Notes: generated by a model not told the origin, from the letters alone. A stretch of 64,000 nt of DNA from an uncultured Phycisphaerales bacterium (GCA_963755915.1 CAVWLP010000002.1:3424001-3488000); one strand, 5' to 3'. Counted from the stretch's first letter, positions 35,278-63,463 are shown. Program-made: numbers and translations.

Positions 35278-35333
35278 TCTCATGCAGAGGCGCAAAGGGG
35301 AAAATCTCTGCGTCTCTGCGCCTCTGCGTGAGA
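35278..35333. repeat. Intergenic palindromic element TCTCAyGCAGAGGCGCA...CTCTGCGCCTCTGCGTGAGA
   Basis: 20-bp inverted arms. The same element lies inside the pilin leader at 61084-61146. Confidence 0.8.
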
Positions 35334-44330: not shown

Positions 44331-46170
44331 GGGTTCTGGCTCGTGACGGTCGTCGTTTCGATCAGCGTTTTTACGTTGCCTGGGGTAATGGAATAAATTG
44401 AGACGGAATGCGTGCCGAGGCTCAGTTCCGGCACCGCGTAGTCGAAGCCGTGATTTCCGATCGCTTCGCCGAGATCGGGAGTGGAGAGATTGGCGGTGAT
44501 CGTCTGCGGCGCTGGGCCACCGGCGATGACCACTTCAATCGTATTGTCTGAGCCGAGGGCGTTGCGATCGTATGAATAGCCCTTAACGTCCGCGTCACTG
44601 ACGGAAGTGACCACCGACGTTTTCAATTCGCCATAGACCGTGAGTTCGTCCTGCGTTCCCACGAAAACCTGGCCGTTAGCGACGGTGGGAACCGAGAATG
44701 GCACGGTGGAATCGAGCGCATCCACGCCTCCCGCTTCCTGGTCGCTGTTCCATAATTCATCGGCGAGATCTGTCGCGTCGAAAGCGCGAAGCGTATTGGT
44801 GTTGCGGTCGATGAGCCAAAGCACGGGGTCCTGGCCGTTGTTGGAGGTGACAAACGGCGACCCGGTTTCGCTGCCGAAGTTTGATTCGGGCGTGGTGGAG
44901 GAGGCGGTCATTGCCCCTTCAATGCTGATAGTGAATGCGTTGGCGGGTCCGCCGCTGCCCGTGATCCAAAGCAGCTTCCCGTCGTAATAAACCGGCGTGC
45001 TGGTCGATCCGCCCGAACCCAGGATATTGGGCGGCGTGTCATTCCCTTGGCCGTTGGCAACGGAATTGAGCACGTTGTCGTTGTTCGGATCGAACTTTCC
45101 GAGGCTGCCGGGATTTACCAGATAAACTTTGCCCCCGTCGCCGGCGACAGCGAGCGCCTCATCGGTTGGGTATGAGTCGATGAACGGAATGAGCGCCACT
45201 CCCCCGTCGCCGATACTGCTTTCGGATTGATCCAGCGCCGTCCGGTTGTACGGCGTGAAAAAGTTGTAGACGCTGAAGCCCCAGCCATTGAGTCCCTGGC
45301 TCTTGGCGCTGGTCGAGCCGTCGAGAACGAGTTCCACGACGGAGTTGTCATAATTTCCGTCGAGCGGGAAACCGGTGGGGCCATAGTCGCCGGTGGCGCC
45401 GGTGCCATAGTTGGTTGAGAGGAAGAATGTCGAGGCATTCAAAAACGCCGGCTGCCCTCCCCCAAGGGAGATGCCACCGCTGCCGCCGTTTGGCGTGACG
45501 TTGAAAACGCCCTGGAGCGCAAAGCCGCTGGTGCTGAGGCTGTAGGTATTCCACGCGACCAGCCAGCCGTGGTAGGGGGAGACGTTGGCGTTGGAAGTCC
45601 AGGTGGCATAGATGACGCCGTTCTGGAGCGTGAGGGCGCCCTGATTCAGCTCGCGCAGCGCGTTGAATTGCACGACCTGGCGTCCGGTGCCGTTGTACGG
45701 ATCGGTGACGCTGCCGTCGCCGGTGCCGTAGACGTAGATGTTGGTGTTGATCGCGCCGCTGGCCGGCGTGTCGGAGATGAGATAGGGCGTGGCGACATCC
45801 AGGCCGGTGCTGAGACTGATCGCGTGCAGTCGCTGCACCCAGTTGGCGATGCCATTGATCGTCTCCTTGGTTTCGACGATCACGTAGAGAGCGTTGTGGG
45901 TCGTGTCGATCACGGGCGTGCCGGTGATGCCGATCTCCGGCGAGATCAGCGTGCCGCCGGTGTCGGACGCGGGAACCGTGGTGATCGCAGTTGCGCCAAG
46001 CGTGTTGTTTACGTCGGTGCCCGACTTCGTGCCGGTCCCGAGGCCAGTTGTCACGGGGTGCGCCAAAACCAGCCAGGGCGGGGCGCTTCAAAACCGGCCA
46101 ATGTGCTGACGTATTCTATACCGCATCCGTTCTATCCGACGCAACTGTTCCTTGAGTTATTGGTCCCCGT

Positions 46171-47061
46171 TCACGCCGTCTGGCCGGCGGATACCCCCAC
46201 ATCAGAAGACAACGGCGGCTCTGTCACGGTGTCTTCCGGGGGGGAGCACCCTTCATCGCCGGCGGTACTCCGCCGTCCTTTTGGATTTGTCTTTTCCGGT
46301 GTCCCGGATTGGCCTGCCGTGAGCGAAGTCGAATGGCCCCCATGCCGAAGGCGGTAGCTCTTGCCGGTGATGTTGATGATCGTGGCGTGCTGCAGGAACC
46401 GATCCAGAATGGCCGTGGCCGCCGGCACGTCGCCGATCAGCTTGGCCCAGTCCTCCAGTGGACGGTTGCTGGTCATCATCGTCGAGCGGTTCTCGTGCCG
46501 GCGCATGACGATCTCCAGCAGGCATTCGCCGCTGCGCCGCGGAAGCTGCTTCATTCCCATGTCGTCGATGATAAGCAGATCAGGCTTGAGATACCGGGCC
46601 AGCGTCTTGTCCTGGGCTCCCAGATCCTCGTCGCCTAAAAAGTCGCGGGCCAGGTCGAAGATGGATCGGTACAGGACCACCAAGCCGCTCTTGATCGCCT
46701 GGTGTCCGATGGCCTGGGCCAAAAACGATTTGCCCACGCCGGGCGGACCCAGCAAGAGCACGTCACGTTTGTCACGAATGAACTGGCCGGCGGCCAGATC
46801 GTGAATCTGTTTGCGTTTGATGGAGGTGTTGAAGGAGAAGTCGAACTCGTCGAGGTTTTTGGTGTCGCGGAACATCGCCGCCTTGACGCGCCGGCCGATC
46901 TGCCGGCTGGATCGGACGTTCAGTTCATCCTGAAGGATCAGTTCCAAAAACTCACTGTGGTCGAGCCGATTGCCGGCCGCCTCGCTCAGGCGAACTTCAA
47001 GGCTGCTCGCCAGACCTGAAAGCCGAAGTTGCTTGAGCGTCTGCATCAACGAAGGTCTCAT
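46171..47061 (-). CDS. istB: IS21 helper ATPase IstB
   Basis: LDEFDFSFN, GPPGVGKS, LLIIDDMG, TSNRPLEDW, AILDRFL, GKSYRL. Confidence 0.95.
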   Translation of the reverse strand: MRPSLMQTLKQLRLSGLASSLEVRLSEAAGNRLDHSEFLELILQDELNVRSSRQIGRRVKAAMFRDTKNLDEFDFSFNTSIKRKQIHDLAAGQFIRDKRDVLLLGPPGVGKSFLAQAIGHQAIKSGLVVLYRSIFDLARDFLGDEDLGAQDKTLARYLKPDLLIIDDMGMKQLPRRSGECLLEIVMRRHENRSTMMTSNRPLEDWAKLIGDVPAATAILDRFLQHATIINITGKSYRLRHGGHSTSLTAGQSGTPEKTNPKGRRSTAGDEGCSPPEDTVTEPPLSSDVGVSAGQTA

Positions 47062-48786
47062 GGGGTGGACTCCCTTCGGCTCTGCTCAGGGCAGGCCTGT
47101 AAAGGTTGTGCGGCAGGCAAAGCCTCCGCTTGGGTGATTGCGTCGCGTACGAACTGTCCGTAATCGGCCAGTCCGCGGATGATTGGATGTTCCTGAACAA
47201 ACTCGAAGTGTTGTTGAACCGGCGCGCCGTTTTGGTGTTCGATGAGCTGCCGCAGGGAGCGCAGGTGATACGCGCCATGCCCCAGAGCAATCTCGCAGGC
47301 TCGTTCCACGGCCGGTCGCGGCTGCTGATTGGCCAGCGACAGCAGCCCCATCAACACGCGCACGCCTTCGATGCCGCGATGCTGAAGCATTGACTGCGCC
47401 CACTGCGTGGCGTGCGGCCCGATGCATTCGATCCGCTGGAGAAGCCAGGTCGTTCCACGCTCGATGCCGCTGATCTTCTCCGGCAGGATATGGGCGTCTT
47501 GCGTCGAGAACCTGCCCGGCGGACGCTGCGCGTGCAGAGCGATCGCACGCATCTTCTGATCGAACAGCCGGACCGTGCGCCGTTCCACCGCGCCCAGACC
47601 CGCTGGCCCAAAAACTCCGGCGGGACCGAATAGTACGCCCCCTTGATCTCCACGTGCCCGTCGCGGTGAACACTGCGCAACGCCTCGGTGAAAAGATCGA
47701 ATCGCACCGGCGGCAGAGCCAACAGTGCCGGCTTCTCTACCTGCTCGAAGACTTCCTTCACCTGCCGCCGCGTCGTGCCGTGGATGCGCGTGTCGGCCAC
47801 GCTCTTCTCCCACGTCAGCAGATGCGCGTTCTGATCCGAGAGCGAGGCGAATTGCCGGCCTTTGAGAGCATTGCTCTTCACATAGCCGATGCCCCGCTCG
47901 ATCTTCCCCTTGTGCCGCGGCGTGTACGGCTTGGTGGGCAGAATGGCGATTCCATAATGTTCGGCGAACGACCGGACCTTGGGACACAACTCCGCCTCGA
48001 ACCAGTCCGCCCGCGTCACCGCCGCGCGAAGATTGTCGATCACCAGCGCGACGGCATCCCGCCGAAGTGCGTAAAGGCATTTTCCAGACAACGCAGAAAA
48101 TCATCGGTCGTCTGCCGCTCCACCGCCTCGGCGTACCCCTTGCGGCTGTGGCTCAGCACAATGCGGAAGACCCAGGTTGCTTTGCGTTTGCCGTCAGGAC
48201 CGACCAGGGCGCACCCCGGCCGAAGTCCACCTGCGCCTCGGCTCCCGGCTCGCATTCCATCCGGCGAAAGGGCGCCGGCGCGGCAGCCGAGAGCTTCTTG
48301 ATGAACCGGCGCACGCTGTAATAGCTGCCGGCATAGCCGTGATCGCTGGAGATGTCTTGATAAATCCGCTGGGCCGTCAGCCCGGCTTCCAACTTCTGAA
48401 CAATGACCTCACGCCAGGGCGATGCCGTACTGACCGACCCGATGGGCGCGCCGGATAACCCGGTGGGCGCGCTCTCCGAGCCGCCTGCGGCGAGCACCGT
48501 CGAGCCGCCTGCGGCGAGCACCGTCGAGCCGCCTGCGGCGAGCACCGTCGAGCCGCCTGCGGCGAGCACCGTCGAGCCGCCTGCGGCGAGCACCGTCGAG
48601 CCGAGGGGCGCGCTGGCCGGTTTTGAATCCGATCCGGGCGCCGCAGGATCGCCGCCCGACAACCGGATGTGGCGTCCAACGGTCTCCCGGTGAACGCCGA
48701 GTTGGCGGGCGATGTTCCGATTGGACCAGCCGCTGCGCAAGTGCCAAAATTGCTTGTACTTCCGCCATCTTGAGTTGATTGGCCAT
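47058..48786 (-). CDS. istA: IS21 DDE transposase IstA (several frameshifts)
   Basis: HTH IARQLGVHRETV, PGAEAQVDFG, VIDNLRA, PRHKGKIER, YYSVPP. ATGA overlap with istB. Confidence 0.9.
48478..48597 (-). repeat. Perfect 24-bp tandem repeat x5 (STVLAAGG) inside istA
   Basis: GAGCCGCCTGCGGCGAGCACCGTC repeated five times. Confidence 0.95.
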
Positions 48787-49313
48787 CCCACCATTGGCTT
48801 GCGGCAACCGCCGAAAGCCAAGGTCGATAACCCAATCTCCTGTGCCTCAAAATGGCCGGTTTTGGCGCGCCCTCAATTGGCCGGTTTTGCGCGCCCCATG
48901 ACAGCCAGTGAATGATCGTTGCCACAGGATCGCGCCCGAAGTCGTGTCGATCGCATAGATCGAGTCGTTGGCCGTCGCCACGAAGACAACGTTGTGCGTG
49001 CCAGTCGATCCGGCCGTGGTGTTTGCGCCGGCGATGATGCTCACGCCGGGATCAGTGAGCGGCTCGGCATAGACCGGGCCGTCGATGGAAACCGTGTATT
49101 GTTTGCCGAAGGTGTCGGTGCTGAGCGTCGTCGACGTCAGGATCGACTCCTGCTGGTTCACGCCGGCGTCTACGTTATTGTTCTGGTACTGAGTAACGCT
49201 GACCGAGAGCAGAACCCTGCTCTCGAGCACTTCAATGAGAGACTTGGCTCGTTTCATTTTGACCCCCGCCAATATATTACGTCGGCATCCGAGGGGGTCA
49301 ATTACAAAGGGCT

Positions 49314-50446: not shown

Positions 50447-50534
50447 GAATGCCGAATGCCGAATGCCAAATGACGAATGGTGTGAAAGGTGTGAAGGTGT
50501 GAAGGGGGAATTGCAAATTGCCGATTGTGGAATG
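50447..50534. repeat. Intergenic 7-mer (GAATGCC) and 8-mer (GGTGTGAA) tandem arrays
   Basis: gaatgccgaatgccgaatgccaaatgacgaatg followed by ggtgtgaa x3. Confidence 0.8.
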
Positions 50535-50736: not shown

Positions 50737-53700
50737 TCAGTTGTTGGGGACGACGACGGTTTTTAGGTATCGGGTGGTGGGGTCGGCGTTGACGCCGGTG
50801 CGGTCGACGATGAAGGCGTAGCGACGGGTGATGACGGGGGAGGCATTGGCCGTGCCGACGTTCTGCCAGCCCTGGACTTCAATGTAGACGGTGAAGGTGT
50901 CGCTGCGCGTGGTGATGAGGTTGGAGATGCGATTAAGGACGGCGAAGTCGGTCTGGTAGTCTTCGCCGAGGCCGGTGGCCGTGACGTTGAAGGTTGGCGC
51001 GCCGGGCGGCGAGGCGGTGGCGGGCACATTGTTGGGCGATGAGGCTGTCGCGTTCGGAAATGCGGGATCGGGCGGGCAAAGCAGTCCGTCCAGGCTGGAG
51101 ACACCGCCGGTCCCGCCACCGGCGGTCAGGTTGATGTACCCTTCCGCGGTTTGGAATCCAGCGGGGCCGTGGGTGCCGGCGCTGGTCGTATGCAAATCAA
51201 CGACTTGGTTTAGACCAAAAATTGAGGTGAAAGGACCGTGGGCAATTCGCCACGCGACGATTGCTTTAGCGAGACTTTCGTTATCCTGGATATAGTTTGA
51301 GTCCTCAACTTTCGTCACCATGGGTAACATGTTTAGGACCTTCCAGGAAGCCGTGTTGATGTTGATCAGGCCCTGGGGACCGACAGTTCCTTGCGATGTT
51401 TCGTCGGTGGCGGTGGGATCAGCGCTGAAGGCGACCGTTGGTCCAGGGGTTGCGGCTACGGGCGGATTCGCCGTCGGGTTGCCCGTGGTCGCCGCTGGGT
51501 ATTTGTAGACATTCGGTGTCGTGCTGGGCGTTGGGCTGTAAGTTTGTATGACATCATTGGTGTTCGGATCGAAGTTTGGAAACACGGTGTCGCTGGAAGA
51601 TTGCACGGTAACGTAAGAAAAAAGGTTTTGTGCCCAAGCGTAGAAATCAGGGTTGCCGGAGGCGGATGGCGTCGCTCGGGCCAGCATCGGACAGAAACGG
51701 CCCACGTTTTCGAGGTTCTGATCTACCGCTGTGGTGGTGGAGTCTATCGTTGTGTAGCCACTCACCGTTGCATAGGCATCGGCGAAGGAAAGGTCCATCG
51801 GCAGGGAGTTCATCTCTACAAAGTTTACCGGCTCGAATGGAGCGGCGGTGTTTATCTGGGAGATCCGGTAAGCGCCGACGAAGGGGATATCGAGCATGTC
51901 GCCGTTGCGCGGGACGGTGCCGAAAGGCGCACTGTAAGGGGTGAGAGTCGAATTGGTGACAGCTACGGTCGGGTTGTCCTGTGCGCCAGTCGATTCCACG
52001 CCCACGGGGTAGATGGTCGGGTTGGGGAAGTGGCTCTGGATGTTTGTCGTAGCATTGATGCCCAGGTTATAAAACTGTGTCGGCGGGAAGTTATTTATGT
52101 ACGTCGAAAGTCCTGGCAGGGTGGGAGTTCCTGGCAGGACGTCCACGCCGAACTGAGGCGTGCCTTGGGGATTGGACCATAGGCCTCCTAGACCGCCGGA
52201 GGGTTCCGCTTCATGGAGCGTCCCTTCCTGCCGAGTGGGGGCTGGCGGAGTCAGAACCGTCGAGTAGCGGCCGGGGAAGAATTGACGGAACCAAGTCGCG
52301 GGCGCGGCGCCTTTTATCCGGATGTAACTATACGCGGTGTTCGAGTTTGGGCCGATGAGGTTCATTCCGGTGAAATCATACGAATCGACCGGAACGAGGT
52401 CATAAAGGTTAGGTTGGGTGGGGGTGCCCTCGTCGTAGACGTTTAGAGGTTCGTCAACTGCGGGGGTGGCGGGGTTGCCAGTGGACGAATAAACGCCGTC
52501 GATTCGGCGGGGACGAAGCAAAACCAGCTCTCCGCCGGTGGATGCGGAGGGTGAGGTTATACCCATTGCGTTCGCGAGGACCAATTGGAGTCCGGGGACG
52601 TAAACGTCGCAGGTGTTTGGCGGAGTCGCGGCTGATGGGGCGGTGACGGCTATCCCGTTATACATTCCGTAATAAATCCCTGAAGCGGGAAGTCCGGAGC
52701 TGGCCGGGCGGGAGGGAGCGTCACCGGCTTGTTGGGTGGCGGTCGGGCCTCCGTTGTAGTTTTCGAGAAGGGCGTATCCATGCGCCGGCACAATGATGGT
52801 CCCGGGGGCGACGCTGGTTGCGGTGCTGTAGTTGAAAGTTTCGGGGAACGTCGGGGGCTCGACGGGTATGGGACGAGGATCGTTAAGTGCCTGGAGTTCG
52901 GTATTCGCCGAGGTGCCTGGCGCGATGACCGATGACACGCCGGTGGTAGTAAAGACGAGGTTGGGATAAGTACCGCCCGAAGCGGCGCGGTTAACCAGCC
53001 CAAGCTGCCAGTTGCGCAGGATCATTGGAACCGAGTAGGTGTTGTAGAGTTCTACAGCCACGTATCCGTTGGTAGTTTCAGTGGTGTTCGTCTCTGCATA
53101 GACCTCGCTGATTACGGGCTCGGGGGCATTGCTGTAGACGGTGGCCATTACCGCAGTCGGTGCGGCTGCGCCGCCACCGTTGCTAATCAAGGCCGTGAGG
53201 TAGATGGTGCGGCTGACGATGTTCTGTGAGCTGTCGCGCAAGCCCATGGCGTTAACGGCGGCCAAAGCGGCGCACAGCAGCATCGTATTTTCGGGATCCA
53301 AGCGGGTGACGTTTGTGGTGTTGCCACTGACGTACGTTGGGTCGCGAAGCGGAGACCGGAACTGGTGCTGGAGCGGAAATTGGTTAGGGCCGCCGGTGGT
53401 GTCGGCACCATAGGGGTTGTAACTGAAGCTTGTTCCGAAGGGAGATTGATTGCTGGGGTTTCCGGCCATGACCGACCAGAAGGCGCGGTAGAGTTCCCTA
53501 AAGGTGGCGGTGTTGATGTTGGCCTTGGCGGGGGCTTTGGTCCAGGGCTGGAAGGCCCACTGTGTGTAATAGCTTCCCGGGCCGCCGCCGGCGTTCGGCG
53601 GAAGAAGCGACATTGATGGAGCATTCGCGGTGTTGCCAATGGTCTGTGAGACGTAGATGTAGGTGAAGCCATCGCTGCCAATGACGATGTCGTTGAATTG

Positions 53701-55638
53701 GTAGGTGGTAGGAGCCCCGCTCCAAGCTCCTTTGAAGTGAGTGTAATTGTTTGGTCCGGAGGCATATGGAAGCATGATCCCGGGGATGGCTCCGCTGGCC
53801 GGTGTGACGTATGGGTTGGGGAAAGCGGCGCCGAGGGGATCGAGTGGCTCGCCTGTGTTCGCCGTGGTGCTGTCGTAGACGGGGGTGATGAAGTTCGAGA
53901 CGCCGTTTCGCGTGGTCAGCAGGGGGCGGATGGGCTGGGCACCGGCGGTCGTGCTATATGAAGGCGGTACGTCGTAGTTAAAATTGTTGGTAAACCATGT
54001 GGCGACGTCAGTGGTGGGAATACTACCGTAGGGCGATGATTGATAATACTGCGCCGGGGTTGTGCCGACGGGGGCTGTGTAATAAAGGAGCGAAAACGGC
54101 AGATAGTTTTGGCTTTCGAGCAAGGACGAGGGGAACTGCGATACGGTTGTTTGCGGATTTACGAGGCAAAAACGGTACGCCAGCGCGGCGGCGTCGGAAT
54201 AGGGGGCGGCCTGGAAGCGAGCGGTGGGGCCGTTGAATCCGGGGTTGGCAATGCGGCGAGACATCTGGTTGTAGAGCGCATCGCCTAGGCTCAGGAACTG
54301 GAAATCGGTGCGGGGGACGGATGCGGTCAGGTTGGTCGTGCCCGTGCCCGGGGCCACGTCGCCGTAGGCTGCCACCCCAGGTGGGCTGGTGCCGCCGTTG
54401 GTGACACCGTAGAGATAACTATACAGGGTATTTGTGGTGTCGCTTGTATTCAGAAGTTCGGGTGCGCCGCTGGCACCAAGCAGTCCAACGCTGTCCTGGA
54501 AGAGGGAATAGTAATTTGGAATTGATCCGGTTGCGCCTCCTGAGAGCTGGTATTCGAAGTCGCGACTCCATGCGGTGTTGACGTTGATGGCGGAATTGTT
54601 GTCGATGATTCGAACACCGCCGTACCAAGTGAGGCCCTGGTAGTTTGCGCCGGGAATACGAAACAGGAAGCAGTCGGCGATGCCGTCGCCGTCTGCGTCG
54701 CCCGCAACATACTGCGCGCCGCCGTAATCGAGAGCGGGGACGTAGATTGGCGCTGTTGCTGGGCCGAGCTGCTTGAAATCGGGGACTAAGTTGGTTCCCA
54801 TTTCGCCCGATAGCGTGTGGCCGGCACTGAGCGCGACCGGAAGTGATGCAGCGGTGTCCGGTGTTTCGAACGGAAGGCCGAGGATGGATGTCGCGGTAGT
54901 TAACCCGTTGGGGACGAAAGATTGGGAGATATTCGGCCAGTATGCGGTAAGCTTGTTGAAAGTAGTGGTTCCCGAGACGTATCCGCCGTCGGGGGTTGGA
55001 ATTCTGTCGGCCAGCCAAGGCTGGGTGAGTCCGGACGTGGTCCCCGGAACATGGGTGGTCTGCATCCACGGACTGGACGAACCAAGAACCGGAGCGCTCG
55101 CAGGACTTGCCGTCACGGCGACGTAATAGTTGGGTGGCACAGGCGGGTTAGCCGCTGGGTTTCCTCCAAAGCTTACGACGTCGCCCAGGCCGTAGGTTTG
55201 GCTGGCGACGTATGTTCCGCGGTATTGGCCGTTGGCGGCTTGAGTGAGGGTGGTGTCCTTGACGGTGTTCCCAAACAAATCCCCGGAGTTGTTATTGAGG
55301 TCGTCGGTGATTACGCCCTCGCATGCTTTGGCGATGCCATTGAGCATCGAGTCTACGTCATTGCTGGCGACGTTCTGGGCGGAGGCGACGCGAGAGGAAC
55401 GGGTGGTCGAGATGTAGGCGGCGCCGAGGATTGCGAGGAGAAGTAACAGGACGATGACGATGATTAACACGGAGGCGCGGCGCCTGCTGCCGAAAATTCG
55501 AAACCCGAAATTCGAAGGCGCGGACGCCTTCGTGGCGTAGTCGCCGAGTACGGCCCGGAGCCGTCCAGGCTCCGGACGAATCAAACTCGAAGGTTTAAAT
55601 GATCGAAACAAACGCGCCTCACTTAAGCTTGAAAACAT
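50737..55638 (-). CDS. Giant GspK/PilX-like minor pseudopilin (start uncertain)
   Basis: RRRASVLIIVIVLLLLLAILG (no Glu5), DADGDGIAD, lamin-tail-like PVISEV..VELYN, HhH ININTAS...GPFTS, and C-terminal LITTRSDTFTVY. Confidence 0.75.
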   Translation of the reverse strand: MFSSLSEARLFRSFKPSSLIRPEPGRLRAVLGDYATKASAPSNFGFRIFGSRRRASVLIIVIVLLLLLAILGAAYISTTRSSRVASAQNVASNDVDSMLNGIAKACEGVITDDLNNNSGDLFGNTVKDTTLTQAANGQYRGTYVASQTYGLGDVVSFGGNPAANPPVPPNYYVAVTASPASAPVLGSSSPWMQTTHVPGTTSGLTQPWLADRIPTPDGGYVSGTTTFNKLTAYWPNISQSFVPNGLTTATSILGLPFETPDTAASLPVALSAGHTLSGEMGTNLVPDFKQLGPATAPIYVPALDYGGAQYVAGDADGDGIADCFLFRIPGANYQGLTWYGGVRIIDNNSAINVNTAWSRDFEYQLSGGATGSIPNYYSLFQDSVGLLGASGAPELLNTSDTTNTLYSYLYGVTNGGTSPPGVAAYGDVAPGTGTTNLTASVPRTDFQFLSLGDALYNQMSRRIANPGFNGPTARFQAAPYSDAAALAYRFCLVNPQTTVSQFPSSLLESQNYLPFSLLYYTAPVGTTPAQYYQSSPYGSIPTTDVATWFTNNFNYDVPPSYSTTAGAQPIRPLLTTRNGVSNFITPVYDSTTANTGEPLDPLGAAFPNPYVTPASGAIPGIMLPYASGPNNYTHFKGAWSGAPTTYQFNDIVIGSDGFTYIYVSQTIGNTANAPSMSLLPPNAGGGPGSYYTQWAFQPWTKAPAKANINTATFRELYRAFWSVMAGNPSNQSPFGTSFSYNPYGADTTGGPNQFPLQHQFRSPLRDPTYVSGNTTNVTRLDPENTMLLCAALAAVNAMGLRDSSQNIVSRTIYLTALISNGGGAAAPTAVMATVYSNAPEPVISEVYAETNTTETTNGYVAVELYNTYSVPMILRNWQLGLVNRAASGGTYPNLVFTTTGVSSVIAPGTSANTELQALNDPRPIPVEPPTFPETFNYSTATSVAPGTIIVPAHGYALLENYNGGPTATQQAGDAPSRPASSGLPASGIYYGMYNGIAVTAPSAATPPNTCDVYVPGLQLVLANAMGITSPSASTGGELVLLRPRRIDGVYSSTGNPATPAVDEPLNVYDEGTPTQPNLYDLVPVDSYDFTGMNLIGPNSNTAYSYIRIKGAAPATWFRQFFPGRYSTVLTPPAPTRQEGTLHEAEPSGGLGGLWSNPQGTPQFGVDVLPGTPTLPGLSTYINNFPPTQFYNLGINATTNIQSHFPNPTIYPVGVESTGAQDNPTVAVTNSTLTPYSAPFGTVPRNGDMLDIPFVGAYRISQINTAAPFEPVNFVEMNSLPMDLSFADAYATVSGYTTIDSTTTAVDQNLENVGRFCPMLARATPSASGNPDFYAWAQNLFSYVTVQSSSDTVFPNFDPNTNDVIQTYSPTPSTTPNVYKYPAATTGNPTANPPVAATPGPTVAFSADPTATDETSQGTVGPQGLININTASWKVLNMLPMVTKVEDSNYIQDNESLAKAIVAWRIAHGPFTSIFGLNQVVDLHTTSAGTHGPAGFQTAEGYINLTAGGGTGGVSSLDGLLCPPDPAFPNATASSPNNVPATASPPGAPTFNVTATGLGEDYQTDFAVLNRISNLITTRSDTFTVYIEVQGWQNVGTANASPVITRRYAFIVDRTGVNADPTTRYLKTVVVPNN

Positions 55639-57712
55639 ATTCGTACCAGGGTCCGTCCTTGACCTTATTATTCGGGTCGTCCACCTTGATAAGGATGCGG
55701 ATGAGTGCCGGCATATCGTCGTGCCAGGCGGCGACGTAATGGGGGGGAATGGCGGCGTTGCCGAAGGCGGGAAGGGTAACGGTGGTGGTGCTGGGCGGGG
55801 CGATGACGGTGTAAGCGTATGTGTAAGCGGCCGTGGTATTCGCCGCGAGAAATTCGCCGTAATCGCGGTTGGGGGCGAAGCTGACGTCAACCTCCCATGG
55901 CGGGGCTATGACCACCGGCTTGGGAGGGGGGCCGGGCTGGGCAAATTCAAACATGGTGTAATAGTCACGAAGAGGGATGACATCGGTGAAATAGTTCAGG
56001 GGTGTTTTGGCGGGGGTGCCTCCATCGACTGTTGGGTCATCATTTCCGCCCTTGATCGGGGCGTTCCGGTCGAATCCACGGATCAGGACCAGGCCACCGG
56101 TGGTGGGATCTCCCGGGTGTGGGACGCCCGTGGAGCTGCGGGGCATTCCGTACCAGCGGATGTGCTTGTTGCCGTTGGCGTCGAGGTAATAGTCGATCTG
56201 ACCATCGGGGCCAAGGCCGGTCATTTGGCCGTCCGCGCCCTGCTGCATGTAATCGCCGGCGTACTCGACGACGAACTGGCTACAGTGCTGGAGAAAGTAG
56301 GGCGCCATTTCAGCCAGAGAGGCGGCGGTGACGGGATTTTGGATCGTCGGGTTGCACTGGGTGCGGGCGTACCAGAGCCCAGGATCAATTGCAGTAGGAG
56401 CTAGTATTCCAGCGTAGGTGGGCGACAAAGGGATGTAATTGACTGTGTAGGGAGGCAACGTGGTTTGAGCAGTCTGGGGTATGGTGGCGTTCACCTGGGT
56501 CAACGGGAGGGTGTAAACCAGCGGATTCCACCATAGCGATGTGCCGGTATCACCGGCTGACTGCCAACCGAGGATCGCATTGTCGATGAGGCGGTCGAAA
56601 TTCTCGGGTGTAATGCCGGCCAGATCATAGCGGGAGGTTTGGAAGAGATTGCTGGGTTGCGAGCCGCTGGTCGGGTTGTCGTTCGGATTATTGTCTTCGG
56701 TTCCGTAGCTCAAGGGGAGCAGGTTGGGGACATAGTTGCCATTTGCGTTGTAGATGCCGTGCGGGTATCGCGCGTTATAGGCGTAGTAGTAATCGCCGAC
56801 GGTGGTGATCGTCGTCGGGTCTTTCATGAGGGTTAATCGCCGGGAGAGGACCCAATCGGAGGCAAAGGCCCCGATGCGGGGGACGCCGGGGGTGGGGGTG
56901 GCGGGGGTGAGCTGATCGACGTAGCTGTCGTAGCCGGAGTTTCCGGCGGGGAGCTCGCTGGGGCCGTAGTATGCGCTTTGGTCGAGGGTGGGGAGGGCGG
57001 CGTGGCCGATCTCGACGTAGGCGTCGTTGGAGGAGTCGGAGGCGAAGTAGGTGCCGTCCGGGCCGGAGCGGCGGGGGTAGAGATAGTGGGCGATGAATTT
57101 CAGCAGGTCGGCGCGATGATTGCGCGAGTTGAGCGTGGCGATGGAGACATATTGCTGGGGGTTATTGGTTTCGAGGGTTGGCTTGGTGCCGGGCTGGCCG
57201 ATGTAGGCGTAGTTGCCGGCGTTGTCGATGGGGATGACGTTGGGATCGGAGCTGGTCTTGGCGTCGTCGGCGTTGAGGAACTGAGTGACGAACTGGCTGG
57301 AGATGATGAAGAGAGGCGGGGGCTTGGCGACGTTGTTGAGGTCGTTGAAGAGGACGGGCTGGGTGGATTGGGCGTCGGAGTTGATCTGGTTGAGGGCCTG
57401 GCCGGCGCCGACGGCGTCGGTGGCGCTGCGGAAGACGAAGTTGATGCCGACGATGAGGATGAGGACGAGGGCGAGGGAGATCATGAGCTCGATCAGGGTG
57501 AACGCAGCCCGGATGGGTGCGGGCGGTAGTCCGCGAAACTCAGGACGGATCCGGCCCCGGACGGCTGCGGGGGGTACACCGCGAAGGTTAGGACGGAGGC
57601 CGCGTGTCTGGAAACCCGAATTCCGAAACCCGAATTCCGAATCAAATCCGAAACCCGAATGACCGAATGTTAGGCGGGCGCGGCGTGGCGCTTTTGGGTT
57701 TTGTCTTTTCAT
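55619..57712 (-). CDS. GspJ/PilW-like prepilin protein
   Basis: AAFTLIELMISLALVLILIVGI, and C-terminal PALIRILIKVDDP. Confidence 0.8.
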   Translation of the reverse strand: MKRQNPKAPRRARLTFGHSGFGFDSEFGFRNSGFQTRGLRPNLRGVPPAAVRGRIRPEFRGLPPAPIRAAFTLIELMISLALVLILIVGINFVFRSATDAVGAGQALNQINSDAQSTQPVLFNDLNNVAKPPPLFIISSQFVTQFLNADDAKTSSDPNVIPIDNAGNYAYIGQPGTKPTLETNNPQQYVSIATLNSRNHRADLLKFIAHYLYPRRSGPDGTYFASDSSNDAYVEIGHAALPTLDQSAYYGPSELPAGNSGYDSYVDQLTPATPTPGVPRIGAFASDWVLSRRLTLMKDPTTITTVGDYYYAYNARYPHGIYNANGNYVPNLLPLSYGTEDNNPNDNPTSGSQPSNLFQTSRYDLAGITPENFDRLIDNAILGWQSAGDTGTSLWWNPLVYTLPLTQVNATIPQTAQTTLPPYTVNYIPLSPTYAGILAPTAIDPGLWYARTQCNPTIQNPVTAASLAEMAPYFLQHCSQFVVEYAGDYMQQGADGQMTGLGPDGQIDYYLDANGNKHIRWYGMPRSSTGVPHPGDPTTGGLVLIRGFDRNAPIKGGNDDPTVDGGTPAKTPLNYFTDVIPLRDYYTMFEFAQPGPPPKPVVIAPPWEVDVSFAPNRDYGEFLAANTTAAYTYAYTVIAPPSTTTVTLPAFGNAAIPPHYVAAWHDDMPALIRILIKVDDPNNKVKDGPWYEYVFKLK

Positions 57713-57747
57713 TCGGCATTTGGCAATCGGCAATCGGCATTTGTTTC

Positions 57748-58968
57748 TCAGTTGTTCGCTGTATTGATGCGGATGAAAGCGGAGGCGACGCCGATGTCCT
57801 GGTTGGGGCCTGTGAAGGGGCCGTCGTAGTAGCCATTGGTGGAGTCAAATGCGGGGGCGGCGCCGATGCAGAAGACGTTGGCGGTGAAGGCGGGGGTGGT
57901 GGAGCTGGGGGTCCAAGTGTTGGCGGCGGCGTCGGCGGGGGTGATGTCCCAGCCGGACTGGGCGACGTACGCAACGTAGGTGATGGTACCTGCGCCGCCG
58001 GCGGGGGCGGCGAAAGTGGTGGCGTTTCCGAGGCGGAAGAATCGGCCGATCATGCTCGGAGGTGCGCCCGGGCCTGGGGCGGGTGCGCCGGTGGCGGTGC
58101 TGATCAGAACGTATGCTCCAGTGCTGAAATTAGGAGAGGGGGACTGGGGCAAGGTCGCACTGGTGTTGTAGCCCATGAGGATGGTCGTTGTGCCGTCGGC
58201 GTTGTAAAAAAACATCGCTGGAATCTGGCCGGTGGTTTGAGGGGGGTAGCCGTAGATATATGGAGGGACGGGCGGGGGGACGGAGGCGGAGATTGTTGTC
58301 TGTCCGGAGGTAGGGACGAGGTAGAGATAGTTGGCGAAGTTGGAGTTTTGCAGGGCGATGACGTAGATGTTGGCGTAGGGGCCGATGGGCTGCGGGGGAG
58401 CACTTCCGGGGACCTGATCGCGACGATAGAAGCCGACCCAGCCGAAGCGTTTGTCGGCGGAATAGAGGGAGTCGGCGCCGAGGGCGGGGAGGAGGCCGGT
58501 GGGGGGAGTGGCGGAGCCGAGGAGAGAGGTGTTGCTGCCGGGGGCGGGGGCAACGGTGGTGATCGCGTAGATGGCGGGGTTGGCGCTGGTGCCGGTGGTG
58601 GGGAAGAGCGTGTTTGCGCCGGGTTGATCGGCGACGTTTTGGATTTTTCTGATGGCGTCGCGGGTGATGAGGGAGCCTTGGGTTTCGCTCGTGACGACGG
58701 CGGTTTGCTGGATGGCGACGGGGAAGATGCCGGCGATCATGATGAAGCCGATGCCGAGGATGATGACGGCGAAGAGGACTTCGATGAAAGTAAAACCCGA
58801 ATTCCGAAACCAGAAATCAGAATCAAATCCGAAACCAGAAGGACGAATGGCCCGGCAAGCCCTTCGGATTTCGTCATTCGGGCTTGATTCGGTATTCCCA
58901 TCGACTCGCTCTGCTCGCTCAGGGCCTGAGCTTGTCGAAGGCTGGTTTCTGGTTTCTGGTTTTCTCAT
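57748..58968 (-). CDS. GspI/PilV-like prepilin protein
   Basis: SGFTFIEVLFAVIILGIGFIMIAGIFPVAI. Start overlaps the upstream stop (TAATG). Confidence 0.8.
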   Translation of the reverse strand: MRKPETRNQPSTSSGPERAERVDGNTESSPNDEIRRACRAIRPSGFGFDSDFWFRNSGFTFIEVLFAVIILGIGFIMIAGIFPVAIQQTAVVTSETQGSLITRDAIRKIQNVADQPGANTLFPTTGTSANPAIYAITTVAPAPGSNTSLLGSATPPTGLLPALGADSLYSADKRFGWVGFYRRDQVPGSAPPQPIGPYANIYVIALQNSNFANYLYLVPTSGQTTISASVPPPVPPYIYGYPPQTTGQIPAMFFYNADGTTTILMGYNTSATLPQSPSPNFSTGAYVLISTATGAPAPGPGAPPSMIGRFFRLGNATTFAAPAGGAGTITYVAYVAQSGWDITPADAAANTWTPSSTTPAFTANVFCIGAAPAFDSTNGYYDGPFTGPNQDIGVASAFIRINTANN

Positions 58969-60205
58969 TACTTTGCCTGAATCAAAGCTCCACTCGTGGG
59001 ATTGATGAGGAAGGCGGTGCCGTTTTTGTCGATCCAGGCTTCTTCGATGAATTTGTCGGCGGCCTGGCTGCCGTTCGGAATCATGCTGGGGGAAGCGGCC
59101 TGAGTTTCAAATTGGCTGTCGGCGCCGGTGAGGGGGGGCGCGGATAGGTCATGTCCATATCGCTGAAGGGGTCGCCGCTGCCGAGGGTGACTTGCGAGGC
59201 CGGACTGCTGCCGACGTTCATGACCTGCATTGAGCAGTGTTGGGTGGCGTAGACGTCGTGGTCAAAGACGACGAAGCCGACGGATGACATCAGGGGGATT
59301 GTGGTGACCGTGGATGGGGGTGCAGCATTGACGTTGCTGGCGATGTCGTAGGTGTAGGTGCCAGTCATGCCGACTTTTGTGCATAGGAGATTGTCGATCT
59401 GGGTTCCGCCATTGACGAAGGTCTCTTGATAGGGGATTCCGAAGGGAATGGAGGCGAGGGTTCCGTCGGGGTTGAACATGATCACGCCGAGGCGGACGTA
59501 ACGGTCCAACGGGGGGACGTTGCTATTTGGGGTCTGGGCGCTGGCCTGGTAATTCCACTGATTGTTGTAGTTGTAGGTGTAAGTGTTCGCGTTGAAAGCG
59601 ACGCCAACGCCTTTGGGAAGGAGGGTGACGTCGCGGTAGAAATTGAAGTTGCCAGGATTGTTGGGGTCGGGGTTGTTGACGAGTTCGATGGTGTTGATGG
59701 GGCCGTTTTGATAGGTGGCAGGATTCCAAGTTGGGTTGTAATAACCAGGGATGAAGAGAGACGTGTAGGTGGCTGTGGTGCCGCCGTAGGGGTGGGCTTG
59801 CCAAAGGGTTTGCACCTGAACCTCGGCTACAGCGGTTTGCGTGGTTTTGGGGTCGATATAGAAGCAGACGCCGATGGTTTGGCGGTTGAAGATGGCGTCG
59901 GCGCGGGCGTTGGATAGGAAGGCGGAGATTTGGTTTTGGGCGGAGGCGAGGTTGGTGCCGCCTAGCAGGGCGTTCCAGACGGGGATGGCGATGGCGAGGA
60001 CGATGATGATGATCGTGAGGACGGTGATCATCTCTATTAATGTGAATGCCGAATGGGAAGTCTGGCGGATTGCCAATTTCCTATTTCCCATTTCCAATTT
60101 AGAAATGCCGCTCGAATTTCCGCCATTCAATAGGCAATAGGCAATGGGCAATGGGCAATCGACTCCCATTGATTCGGCATTCTGATTTTTCGGTTGGAGC
60201 TTCAT
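58968..60205 (-). CDS. GspH/FimT-like prepilin protein (frameshift at G run about 59132-59138)
   Basis: SAFTLIEMITVLTIIIIVLAIAIP, AQNQISAFLSNARADAI, IMFNPDG. True end FLINPTSGALIQAK* is in another frame. Confidence 0.8.
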
Positions 60206-60236
60206 GGCTCGATCCTGGTTGAGACTGCGTGCCGAA

Positions 60237-61168
60237 TCATGGCTGGAAGGAATAGATGTTGTCGTCGGTCATGTCGGAGGTCGGGGTGCCGGACGTGTAG
60301 CCGTGGGCGTTGCTCATGTCTCCATCGGGGCCGGCGGAAACAAAAAAGGGTTTGTTGGGAAGTGGGACCGTGGAATTGCCGGGAGTGTAGGCACTGGGGC
60401 CGCTAGGGTTTTTGACGCCCTCGGTGGTGATGACTTCAGTTTGATTGAAGCTGGGATCGACCCAGACGACCGCCAGTCCTCCACCGGGGACGAAGAGGAT
60501 GGGGTTGCCATAGCCGTCGAGGAGGAGGGGTATGCCGTTGGCGGCGTCCTTAACGACCTTGCTGGAGGGGAGATTATTCACAATCGTCTGGTTTTCGGGC
60601 ACCGTCAGCATCGCCTGCATGATGGCTTCGGTGTTGGCGATTGTTTCATGCAGGGCGCCGTGGTTTGGATTTGACAGGCCGATGACATCGGGAGAGATAG
60701 GGCCCTGGGGCGCCGGCACTTCACCTTTAGACCATACGAGCGACGCGGCCTGCGCGTACGATTGAGTTGATTGGCCTATCAGGTTGTAGAGCTGCATTAG
60801 GTTTGCGGGATTCGCGCCCTTGATCGCAAGTGTGTGAATGGGGGGGCTGTTGCCGGTTTGGGCGAGATTATACGGCACGTTTGTATTCAAGCCGCCCGCC
60901 TGCTCGTAATTGGCAAACATCGTGGCGGCGATTTGGAGCATCGTTTTGGTATCGCGGGCCTTGGCCTGGGCGGTGACAATTTTGCGCCGGCGAAGAAGAG
61001 GCCCATCAGGATGAGGATGATGCCGATGACGACGAGGAGTTCGATCATGGTGAAAGCGTAGTTGCGAGAGGGGAAAAGACGGGTCTCACGCAGAGGCGCA
61101 GAGGCGCGGAGAGAAGAACTCTGCGGCTCTGCGCCTCTGCGTGAGATAATCGCTTTTTCAGTCGTCAT
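60237..61168 (-). CDS. Prepilin / GspG-like protein (frameshift near 60980)
   Basis: [39 protein letters not shown]...DDNIYS. Confidence 0.8.
61084..61146. repeat. Palindromic element within a prepilin leader-coding region
   Basis: Perfect 20-bp inverted arms TCTCACGCAGAGGCGCAGAG / CTCTGCGCCTCTGCGTGAGA. Confidence 0.9.
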
Positions 61169-61238
61169 TTGGACCACTTTCCGCCTGCTGAATCATTCAT
61201 GATGTCTTGTGCTTTCGGCAAGGGAAACGGGGGGAATT

Positions 61239-62570
61239 TCACTGGGAGACGTTGCCGAAACTCGTGATGTTGTCAGCAGTTCCGTAAATTCCGTCCGGTC
61301 CCGCGGAGATGAGGATGAATTGATCGACGGCGCGGGGGCGGCTGGAGTAGTTGATGTACTTTGCCGAGGTGTTGGTCGGGGTGATCGAGGAGTTGACAAA
61401 AAAGTCATACCCGTCGGAGGCATTAGTCACGCCAGCTTTTGCCACAGCGGGAGGCGGCCAGCTTGTGGGCGGATAGTTTTGCGCCGTTCCTACGGCGTTA
61501 AGGTTGTGAGAGTTGCCTGTCGGGAGGCCGATGGACGTCCCTGTGTAGGCGTAAATGTCTCCGAGGTCATATTGAAATTCGGCGTAGGGCAGATTCGTGG
61601 TGGGGTCGGATGGCGCGGTCTGGCCGTACGTGGAGCCATTGACGAAGGAAAGGGTGCCTTGGGCGCCGGTCCTTGCCCGCAAGTAGAGGATTGGCATAGG
61701 GCCGGGGGTGGGGAAGCGATCGACGAATTCGGGAATAGGACTATCTCCGGCCATGGTTCCGGCCTGATCGGCAAACTGGGACAGCGTTCCGGCGGGGTTG
61801 TATTGGGTGGTCTGGCCGACGGCGCCGTTCGCGTTTGTTTCGGTCCACATCAGGTAATTCGATCCGGATGGGAAGAAAGAGGGCGTCCGGGCGGGGCTGA
61901 GGGGATTGAGGCTCAGGGGGCCGAGTCCGACTTCGGTGGGGGCGAAGGCGGCTGTATATGTCAACGCCTGGCCGTTGATTGTCGACGGAGCGCCGGCCTC
62001 AAGTCTGAGACCACCCATGAGGCCGAGGACGAGGTTCTCGGAGCCGGTTATGTAGTATTTGCTGGGAAGATTCGAGAACGTCGGCGGGTTGGTCGTGGTG
62101 TTGTACCAGAAACGCAAATAAGGGGTAGGAGTTCCACCCGTATTGACGCAAGAACTCTCGATCTGATCGTTACTCAGCGGCCCCGGATAGGCATTGAAGG
62201 TCGAGTAATACTGATTGCAGGCATTGGCGAGCTGGCTGATTTCGTTTTGGGTATCGGCGACATAGGCGGCCCGGCGGACGCGGCCGATGATGGGGAAGAG
62301 GAGGCCGACGAGAATGGCGATGATGCCGATGACGACGAGAAGCTCGGTCAGGGTGAATGCAGACGCAGCCCGGACGGCTGCGGGCGGTACTCCGCGAAAC
62401 TTAGGCCGGAGGCCGCGTTGCGAGTTGCGAGGCCGTAGCCGTAGGGTGGGCGTATTCGCCCACCGTTTGGTCTGTTGCTCATCGGGGATGGTGGGCGAGT
62501 ACGCCCACCCTACATGCCGAATGCCGAATGCCGAATGAGTGGAGTTGCGGGTTGCGGGTTTGGGAGTCAT
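61239..62570 (-). CDS. Prepilin / GspG-like protein with 71-aa leader
   Basis: [42 protein letters not shown]. Confidence 0.85.
   Translation of the reverse strand: MTPKPATRNSTHSAFGIRHVGWAYSPTIPDEQQTKRWANTPTLRLRPRNSQRGLRPKFRGVPPAAVRAASAFTLTELLVVIGIIAILVGLLFPIIGRVRRAAYVADTQNEISQLANACNQYYSTFNAYPGPLSNDQIESSCVNTGGTPTPYLRFWYNTTTNPPTFSNLPSKYYITGSENLVLGLMGGLRLEAGAPSTINGQALTYTAAFAPTEVGLGPLSLNPLSPARTPSFFPSGSNYLMWTETNANGAVGQTTQYNPAGTLSQFADQAGTMAGDSPIPEFVDRFPTPGPMPILYLRARTGAQGTLSFVNGSTYGQTAPSDPTTNLPYAEFQYDLGDIYAYTGTSIGLPTGNSHNLNAVGTAQNYPPTSWPPPAVAKAGVTNASDGYDFFVNSSITPTNTSAKYINYSSRPRAVDQFILISAGPDGIYGTADNITSFGNVSQ
62441..62513. repeat. GTAG-type REP doublet (REPIN-like) within a prepilin leader-coding region
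   Basis: GTAGGGTGGGCGTATTCGCCCACC and an inverted copy match at 23/24. Each arm is itself palindromic. An intergenic copy lies at 63368-63391. Confidence 0.9.
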
Positions 62571-62731
62571 CGGTTGGGGTGAGGCCGCTGTTAATTCTGT
62601 CGGGCCGGGGACGGCCCGGCTCGATGGGGGATTCGTTACCGCCGCTCGTATTTTACGGTCTGTCCAGTGGGTTGGAAGTAGGTTGCCTTTCTTTTGATTT
62701 ACGGGGGGTTTCTGGTAGGTTTAGGCAATCC

Positions 62732-63367: not shown

Positions 63368-63463
63368 GGTGGGCGAGTACACCCACCTTACGTGTTGCAT
63401 TCGAATATTGAGTTTCGAGTTTCCTTACGGCAAACGCGCTCCCCTGCGGGTCGCGGCTAAACG
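63368..63463. repeat. Intergenic repeat cluster: single GTAG-type REP, heptamer run, and GCGGCTAAACG element
   Basis: 63368-63391 matches 62490-62513, and 63436-63463 matches 1957-1985. Confidence 0.75.

Follow-up and report, generated by a model that had tools for sequence, protein, structure and literature searches.

Class III prepilin leaders are described as 6-26 amino acids (aa) long, or about 15-30 aa for type IVb, and as ending in Gly (PMC4471445). Repetitive extragenic palindromes (REPs) tagged with GTAG occur inside genes of several species, including a verrucomicrobium, and many of them lie at the N-termini of open reading frames (ORFs), where mis-called starts were suspected in many cases (PMC3733652). 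Enterobacterial repeat units (RU-1 and RU-2) are found fused to ORFs, and one of them forms part of a class I signal peptide predicted in silico (PMC2759123). The present analysis concerns a six-gene, prepilin-type operon on the minus strand (50737-62570) of a 64,000-nucleotide stretch of DNA, called the window, from an uncultured Phycisphaerales soil bacterium (GCA_963755915.1, CAVWLP010000002.1:3424001-3488000). The source genome is designated G000, and the window is G000:C2:3424001-3488000. Comparison with related genomes makes it likely that dispersed repeats persist in the translated, discarded prepilin leaders of this operon, which would act as a safe harbour for them.

Results

The operon and the repeats in its leaders

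The six genes were co-directional, five of prepilin type (g1-g5) and one GspK-like (g6). Corrected coordinates come from the contig comparison given below.

g1, 61239-62570, minus strand: GspG-like prepilin; ATG 62570, 71-aa leader, Phe+1 codon 62355-62357
g2, 60237-61177, minus strand: prepilin, frameshifted in the window; ATG 61168, 38-aa leader
g3, 59081-60205 in the window, 58968-60205 corrected, minus strand: GspH-like prepilin; leader of up to 53 aa
g4, 57748-58968, minus strand: PilV-like prepilin; 58-aa leader, ATG overlapping the g3 stop (TAATG)
g5, 55619-57733 in the window, 55619-57740 corrected, minus strand: prepilin; 70-aa leader from ATG 57712, corrected to 80 aa from ATG 57740
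g6, 50737-55638, minus strand: giant GspK-like protein with an HHH_3 domain; 56-aa N-terminal cytoplasmic tail

All of g1-g5 carried FT(L/M/F)(T/I)E followed by a hydrophobic run, with Phe+1, Glu+5 and a helix of ~20 residues. Residue -1 was Gly in g4 and Ala in the other four. All five matched two prepilin N-terminal models, PF07963 and TIGR02532. The TIGR02532 cut-off (16.3) was passed by g1 (16.9), g2 (21.3), g4 (18.0) and g5 (19.9), and that of PF07963 (21.2) by g2 (26.9), g4 (24.9) and g5 (21.4); g3 scored under both (PF07963, 17.7), yet the motif was present. The equivalog models missed their cut-offs (GspG, 32.7 versus 88.85; GspH, 25.2 versus 80; PilV, 27.5 versus 52.2) and matched only in the N-terminal helix region, so the GspG, GspH and PilV labels are descriptive. 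With labels taken in that sense, a pseudopilin or minor-pilin operon of the GspG/H/PilV/J/K type would be the best explanation of these genes. Two A24 peptidases are encoded in the source genome, one PilD-like (C3:690882-692081; A24_N_bact, 126.8 bits) and one short and TadV-like.

Dispersed repeats lay between the start codon and the cleavage site or membrane helix in all six genes.

g1 heptamer array, 62514-62537, minus strand: CATTCGG on the coding strand, 3.4 perfect copies (tandem-repeat search)
g1 GTAG REP doublet, 62441-62464 and 62490-62513, unstranded: inverted copies, 96% complementary (pair I2)
48-50-nt unit, g1 copy, 62369-62418, minus strand: abuts the g1 cleavage site (family D4)
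g2 palindrome, arms 61084-61111 and 61119-61146, unstranded: 28-nt arms, 93% complementary (pair I1)
g3 opposed heptamer arrays, 60128-60159 and 60069-60100, unstranded: 4.6 copies each
g4 composite palindromic element, 58793-58962, minus strand: fills the leader (D6, I11, I14)
52-nt 'GFGF' element, 57612-57663 (g5) and 58793-58844 (g4), minus strand: two copies, 90% identity (D6)
g5 leader repeats, 57508-57741, minus strand: heptamer array 57710-57741, 'GFGF' element and two 48-nt units
48-nt units in g5, 57556-57605 and 57508-57557, minus strand: family D4
g6 tail elements, minus strand: 86-nt hairpin 55508-55593 and heptamers 55494-55516, in the N-terminal tail

GTAG-tagged REPs are palindromes of 20-40 bp with an unpaired GTAG at one end, often arranged as inverted dimers. 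The g1 element had this form: GTAG preceded an 8-bp stem with a 4-nt loop, and two inverted copies lay 25 nt apart. The pattern gave three matches in the window versus none in 100 shuffles. The g4 composite was made up of an AGAAACC arm (58942-58962) complementary to 58807-58840, a nested insert (58897-58943) and a 'GFGF' arm ending at Gly-1. Three arm pairs of the inverted-repeat search (I11, I14 and I16) spanned the g3 and g4 leaders.

An earlier, sequence-only reading of this DNA had placed repeats between the start and the cleavage site or transmembrane (TM) helix of all six genes, and direct, inverted and tandem repeat searches reproduced that layout. It had also coupled the g4 start to the upstream stop, and the TAATG junction was confirmed. 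The g2 palindrome was present, although with 28-nt arms of 93% complementarity and not the 20-bp arms reported. The leader lengths given as 71, 38, up to 53 and 58 aa stood, whereas the 70 aa of g5 had to be revised to 80. Intergenic copies of the elements had been placed at 63368, 50447 and 35278; the first two were recovered (63368-63391 and 50447-50472), and for the third one arm was seen, at 35314-35333.

Reading frames in related genomes

Orthologous operons were compared from 11 same-genus genomes and three genomes from other genera of the family; the unpublished G014 was left out. At the g3/g4 junction, an ATG overlapped the g3 stop in 10 of the 11 same-genus genomes (ATGA in seven, TAATG in three), and in the same 10 this ATG was in frame and stop-free to Phe+1. 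The distance from the g3 stop to Phe+1 ranged from 101 to 413 nt in these 10 genomes and was always 2 modulo 3, with g4 leaders of 35-138 aa. The exception was G006, an error-prone assembly with many broken frames.

The g4/g5 gap was tested at 13 loci, 12 from the genus plus G020. The pilin frame contained no stops in 13/13 loci, and frames +1 and +2 each contained at least one stop in 13/13. The first open in-frame ATG lay 2-18 nt past the stop in 11 of the 13 loci, a spacing that the corrected G000 also fits, at an offset of 10 nt. Both the g3/g4 and the g4/g5 patterns were followed by all seven assemblies that appear short-read-like by contig counts (G002, G004, G005, G008, G009, G010 and G012). 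Leaders in the relatives were up to 82 aa long in the short-read-like assemblies; those of G011 (9 contigs) and of the error-prone G001 read as long as 93 and 138 aa, respectively.

The leaders of the same-genus orthologs all read like translated repeats, of types that differed between species. For g5 the leader looked repeat-derived in 12/12 same-genus orthologs, as judged by eye and checked by BLAST for G010 only. Leader DNA from G010 g5 gave 119 BLAST matches in its own genome and that from G004 g4 gave 145, each count including the query itself and both strands. In the outgroups G013 and G019, a canonical start lay 7-28 codons before Phe+1 and no obvious leader repeats were seen. Repeat content differs between species, a sign that insertions come and go without loss of the frame. 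Heptamer slippage or random insertion would be expected to scatter the phase; its conservation thus argues for translation that starts at the upstream ATG and continues through the repeats.

Sequence check against short-read contigs

The window was compared with short-read contigs from soil metagenomes (runs X1 and X2 of one study). These runs may include the genome's own source sample, and the comparison is a check of base calls, not independent biology. Three indels in 7.3 kb of the window were contradicted by the contigs, two of them in homopolymer runs. A G added behind 59131 restored the C-terminus of g3, whose true end is the TAA at 58968-58970 of TAATG. A T added behind 60979, where the A run 60980-60983 is one base short according to both X1 and X2 contigs, removed the g2 frameshift. 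GC added behind 57677, inside the g5 leader, put ATG 57712 out of frame and ATG 57740 in frame; the latter is the first ATG past the g4 stop, 7 nt downstream, and the corrected leader of 80 residues consists of 21, one junction codon and 58. The g1 leader was confirmed base for base by an X1 contig (record 8) that spans 62293-62700 with 0 differences.

Some contigs joined leaders of different genes (e.g. 57645 to 58863), most likely through mis-joins induced by the repeats, or because they represent other copies. Single contigs had a 1-nt deletion at 62398/62399 that probably belongs to a further copy of the 48-nt unit, since the window sequence there is matched by another contig. In one X2 contig, 58893-58943 (51 bases) was replaced by 6 other bases, a net change of -45 nt that kept the g4 frame; it may represent a strain variant without the nested insert, or another repeat copy.

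Leader lengths and start codons in the source genome

A prepilin-motif survey of G000 gave 66 sites, of which three with fewer than 80 codons downstream, including the frameshifted g2, were dropped and 63 were kept. The shortest canonical leader was at most 29 codons in 58 of the 63 genes and 30 codons in one; one gene had none. The three longest minimum leaders among the 63 were those of g4 (58 codons), g5 (70) and g1 (71). Across g1-g5 the minimum canonical leaders were 71, 38, 10, 58 and 70 aa (80 aa for the corrected g5), which is not the short, Gly-ending form. As the sequence-only reading had stated, no in-frame ATG, GTG or TTG was found from the repeats to Phe+1 in g1, g4 and g5. A canonical start after the repeats was likewise lacking in G001 g4 and g5, G008 g1, G010 g5, and G005 g4 and g5.

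Three prepilin-type genes outside the operon are recorded here as separate observations. In two of them (C2:1687937 and C2:1333757) a dispersed repeat separates a canonical start from the cleavage site, and the shortest leaders are 30 and 17 aa. The third (G000:C2:4031438) has 24 open codons before Phe+1 without an ATG, GTG or TTG.

Distribution of the elements

Copies in G000 were counted as matches covering at least 60% of the element length. Each element type had 12-77 copies, in both orientations and nearly all outside gene cores (GTAG REP, 17/17; g1 heptamer array, 37/39; another heptamer array, 66/77). The two g1 GTAG REP queries gave modest numbers, 17 and 13 copies, none of which overlapped a gene core, although the two copies in g1 itself sit in an open frame. 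The 48-nt unit had 12 copies; only those in the operon, three in number, adjoin a cleavage site, and the other nine lie in non-coding contexts. The genome-wide search suggested by the sequence-only reading turned up elements that are dispersed and mostly extragenic; in the ortholog comparison the leaders differed between species.

A repeat map of 16-mers occurring at least 6 times covered 4.7% of the genome; it superseded a 12-mer map that was unusable, with 46% of the genome flagged. Gene cores, which make up 62% of the genome, held 427 of the 1643 short 16-mer intervals. In the window, 14 of 37 such intervals fell within 7 kb at 55498-62622, two of the 14 being a conserved word that codes for the pilin helix. 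A repeat was present at 494 of the 3014 unidirectional junctions of G000 (16.4%). The crude gene model behind this figure miscalls the frameshifted operon genes and was used for genome-wide rates only; within the operon it gave no run of repeat-bearing junctions, these genes being miscalled. GTAG-tagged REPs are characteristically accompanied by a RAYT transposase that REPs flank; two Y1_Tnp (Y1-transposase) matches were found in G000 (57.4 and 30.5 bits). A known RNA family was sought for the repeats, and Rfam gave only sub-threshold microRNA-like hairpin matches.

In several pilin genes of G000 and of G001, its closest relative, the cleavage site is directly preceded by the 48-nt unit, in the same frame and orientation and sometimes in tandem. 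This arrangement suggests that the unit spread between the operon leaders by recombination or duplication rather than by independent insertion. Elsewhere in the window, a 2.9-kb repeat at 46049-48904 is probably an insertion sequence, and G000 holds 112 high-copy intervals of 1-5 kb.

RNA folding and signals

Four of the seven folded leader segments were significantly more stable than shuffles. They were the g1 REP doublet at 62441-62513 (-72.7 kcal/mol, z -5.06), the g2 palindrome (-62.8 kcal/mol, z -10.2), the g3 segment (z -3.65) and the g6 segment (z -3.52). The three g4/g5 segments were no more stable than shuffles (z -0.65, 0.37 and 0.40). The terminator scan returned nine terminator-like sites versus 6.8 expected, none of them at the leader hairpins on the coding strand, and the promoter scan returned no promoter-like site.

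Repeats before other signal helices

An esterase-like lipoprotein (G000:C2:2477187-2478188) carries a heptamer repeat in frame immediately ahead of its lipoprotein signal helix, with no canonical start other than one upstream of the repeat. In G001 the ortholog has 23 additional in-frame codons, a reversed 48-nt unit, inserted within the heptamer repeat; the orthologs in other species have native signal peptides without repeats. A secreted protein (G000:C2:3960102-3960836) has an element of the g2 hairpin type between its first residues and the signal helix, and translation may actually begin at a GTG that follows the element; its orthologs have a plain signal peptide. Two more lipoproteins (C2:1118187 and C2:409309) share the layout of a repeat before the signal helix. 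The n-region of signal peptides, which is discarded, may thus accommodate repeats more generally in this genome.

Discussion

In the reading that we consider likely, dispersed palindromic repeats (GTAG REPs, inverted heptamer arrays and the 48-nt unit) would have inserted between start codon and cleavage site and would be translated within unusually long, basic, cytoplasmic leaders, of 38-80 aa in G000, which an A24 prepilin peptidase is expected to remove. A discarded leader would be constrained only to stay in frame, stop-free and non-hydrophobic, with Gly or Ala before Phe+1. With the cistrons coupled by stop/start overlaps, these few constraints would leave the leader as the one nearly neutral site where elements can persist. 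Translation from the upstream ATG, cleavage of the long leaders and neutrality of the inserts are inferences in this reading.

Several points weigh against this. The orthologs are non-independent samples, and four of the genomes, G000 itself among them (with G001, G006 and G007), carry indel errors and look like error-prone long-read assemblies, with few contigs, low completeness and stops inside matches. The sequence-only reading had proposed an alignment of orthologous operons, in which leaders should differ while the frame is kept. This was so at g4 and g5, but the pilin frame was stop-free in only 7/12 g2 loci and 8/12 g3 loci, and the remaining loci had a native-looking leader of 16-23 aa after a true non-coding gap. 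In G011 the g2 hairpin element is extragenic, ahead of every possible start. In most g6 orthologs the repeats precede a conserved N-terminal tail of 22-27 aa; the g6 repeats are in frame in G000, G001, G011 and G012. From the g2 and g6 layouts it follows that the same elements occupy the non-coding gap as well as the leader.

Start codons are a further difficulty. Many orthologs have a TTG or GTG within the repeats, 6-20 codons before Phe+1, that could serve as a start, and in G000 near-cognate codons (ATC, ATT and ACG) lie in frame 4-55 codons before Phe+1 in g1, g4 and g5; dual or downstream initiation is possible on both counts. The prepilin gene at C2:4031438 reflects either a non-canonical start or an assembly error, and either of these counts on the same side. 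Selection at the peptide level appears weak, with mean net charges of 5.3, 5.2 and 4.2 across the three frames. Weak trends were seen in TM-like windows (0/42 leaders in the pilin frame versus 6 and 2 in the other frames) and in net charge of 0 or below (2 leaders versus 6 and 8). Outside the operon, the 79 elements adjoining 5' gene ends had no frame bias (63/63/63 open), in a single-genome test that lacks power because ~80% of element frames are open by themselves. The predicted enrichment in prepilin leaders did not materialize, since 7/63 prepilin genes had a repeat word no farther than 150 nt from the cleavage site, versus 9% of random windows; the enrichment is confined to this operon. 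The safe-harbour claim of the sequence-only reading therefore survives for this operon, where frame is kept and content turns over, and not for the prepilin class.

If the repeats were ordinary intercistronic, untranslated REPs, the pilins would start near the cleavage site at TTG, GTG or a near-cognate codon, and the long open frames would be a by-product of stop-free repeats. REPs do typically lie between co-directional genes, and many of those at ORF N-termini may be extragenic, as PMC3733652 warns. The open element frames without bias elsewhere in the genome, the TTG and GTG codons of the orthologs and the leaders of at most 29 aa possible in 58/63 prepilin genes all fit this explanation. 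We nevertheless regard it as unlikely, as it leaves unexplained the phase of 2 modulo 3 in 10/11 genomes over 101-413 nt and the 13/13 g5 gaps that are open in the pilin frame and closed in both others, and several genes, in G000 (g1, g4 and g5) and in relatives, have no canonical start after the repeats. Another possibility, compatible with the safe harbour because the repeats would still be translated, is that they are selected as RNA hairpins that block independent initiation, enforcing coupling or mRNA stability and so fixing subunit ratios. The repeat-like g5 leaders of 12/12 same-genus orthologs, set against repeats at 16.4% of unidirectional junctions, point this way, as do an occupancy that persists while the element type turns over, the g1, g2, g3 and g6 leaders that fold far better than shuffles, and the arm pairs that span the g3 and g4 leaders. 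The g4 and g5 segments fold no better than shuffles, however; the outgroups and several g2 and g3 orthologs have repeat-free leaders of 13-27 aa; and an insertion hot spot would explain the lasting occupancy equally well. We hold the hairpin explanation as a less likely, tentative one, and the tuning of subunit stoichiometry by mRNA hairpins that the sequence-only reading put forward gains no support from these data. Genus-wide occupancy could reflect selection or such a hot spot. The strongest form of the idea would have translated hairpins from interchangeable selfish elements kept genus-wide in every pilin leader of the operon, where they couple cistrons and set subunit ratios, with a peptidase that routinely processes leaders of 60-140 residues; this form is doubtful.

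The heptamer arrays might also be contingency loci, in which slippage by one or two units switches single pilin genes on or off. In favour of this, the 7-nt unit is not divisible by 3 and the arrays occupy the 5' portion of the coding region in surface-filament genes. Against it, they are short and for the most part imperfect (2.1-4.6 copies at 75-100% match, and one degenerate array of 7.4 copies at 64%), dozens of copies of them lie outside genes, and the contigs showed no change of unit number inside an array, which is weak evidence since contigs drop rare variants. Switching of this kind is very improbable here. That the long leaders are artefacts of error-prone assembly is hardly credible. 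Three contradicted indels in 7.3 kb, one of them within the g5 leader, would favour it, but the corrections restore or lengthen frames, a contig confirms the g1 leader base for base, and the pattern is shared by G002, G004, G005, G008, G009, G010 and G012.

When a REP lies at the N-terminus of an ORF, the usual verdict is a mis-called start, and this operon is a case in which comparative frames argue that such repeats are read. The evolutionary rule would be that a segment can absorb selfish DNA if it is later removed and discarded. Such a rule predicts prepilin leaders far beyond 6-30 aa and has consequences for pilin prediction tools built on the assumption of short leaders, for the annotation of start codons in repeat-rich, Planctomycetota-like genomes and for the range of substrates that A24 peptidases accept. 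The operons also offer a natural series of leader variants for testing the effects of leader length and mRNA structure on pilin expression. If the hairpin-coupling explanation were true, the class III leader would be both a regulatory RNA and a disposable peptide, and the A24 substrate range would be extended several-fold.

Comparison with known systems

In Neisseria opa genes, phase-variable CTCTT repeats, with a unit that is not a multiple of 3, lie in the part of a surface protein gene that codes for the signal peptide. The operon resembles them in having tandem units not divisible by 3 in the leader-coding part. Unlike them, its arrays belong to dispersed elements, pair as palindromes and are short and imperfect; no long perfect array was present, and the contigs, which may miss rare variants, showed no length variation.

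Intragenic REPs and the Rickettsia palindromic elements (RPEs) are closer relatives in kind, as small palindromic dispersed repeats inside ORFs that add residues and do not destroy the protein. Here, by contrast, the host segment would be cut off and the mature protein left unchanged, the equivalent position in five or six neighbouring genes is taken by several unrelated types of element throughout the genus, and comparative frame evidence favours translation. The RU-1/RU-2 signal peptide of PMC2759123 is a single in-silico class I case that is not operon-wide and is given without comparative frame evidence.

With class III prepilins the operon genes share Phe+1, Glu+5, a hydrophobic helix of ~20 residues and a dedicated A24 peptidase encoded in the genome. 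Their predicted leaders differ in length, 38-80 aa here and up to 138 aa in a relative, and residue -1 is Ala in 4/5 genes. Leaders of these predicted lengths would exceed every described one three- to five-fold. The literature search returned no account of repeats within prepilin leaders, and it stopped short of supplementary lists such as that of the intragenic REPs of PMC3733652. What appears to be new relative to these systems is a discarded prepilin leader as host, a pattern that extends over the operon and the genus, comparative frames that favour translation, and the implied leader lengths.

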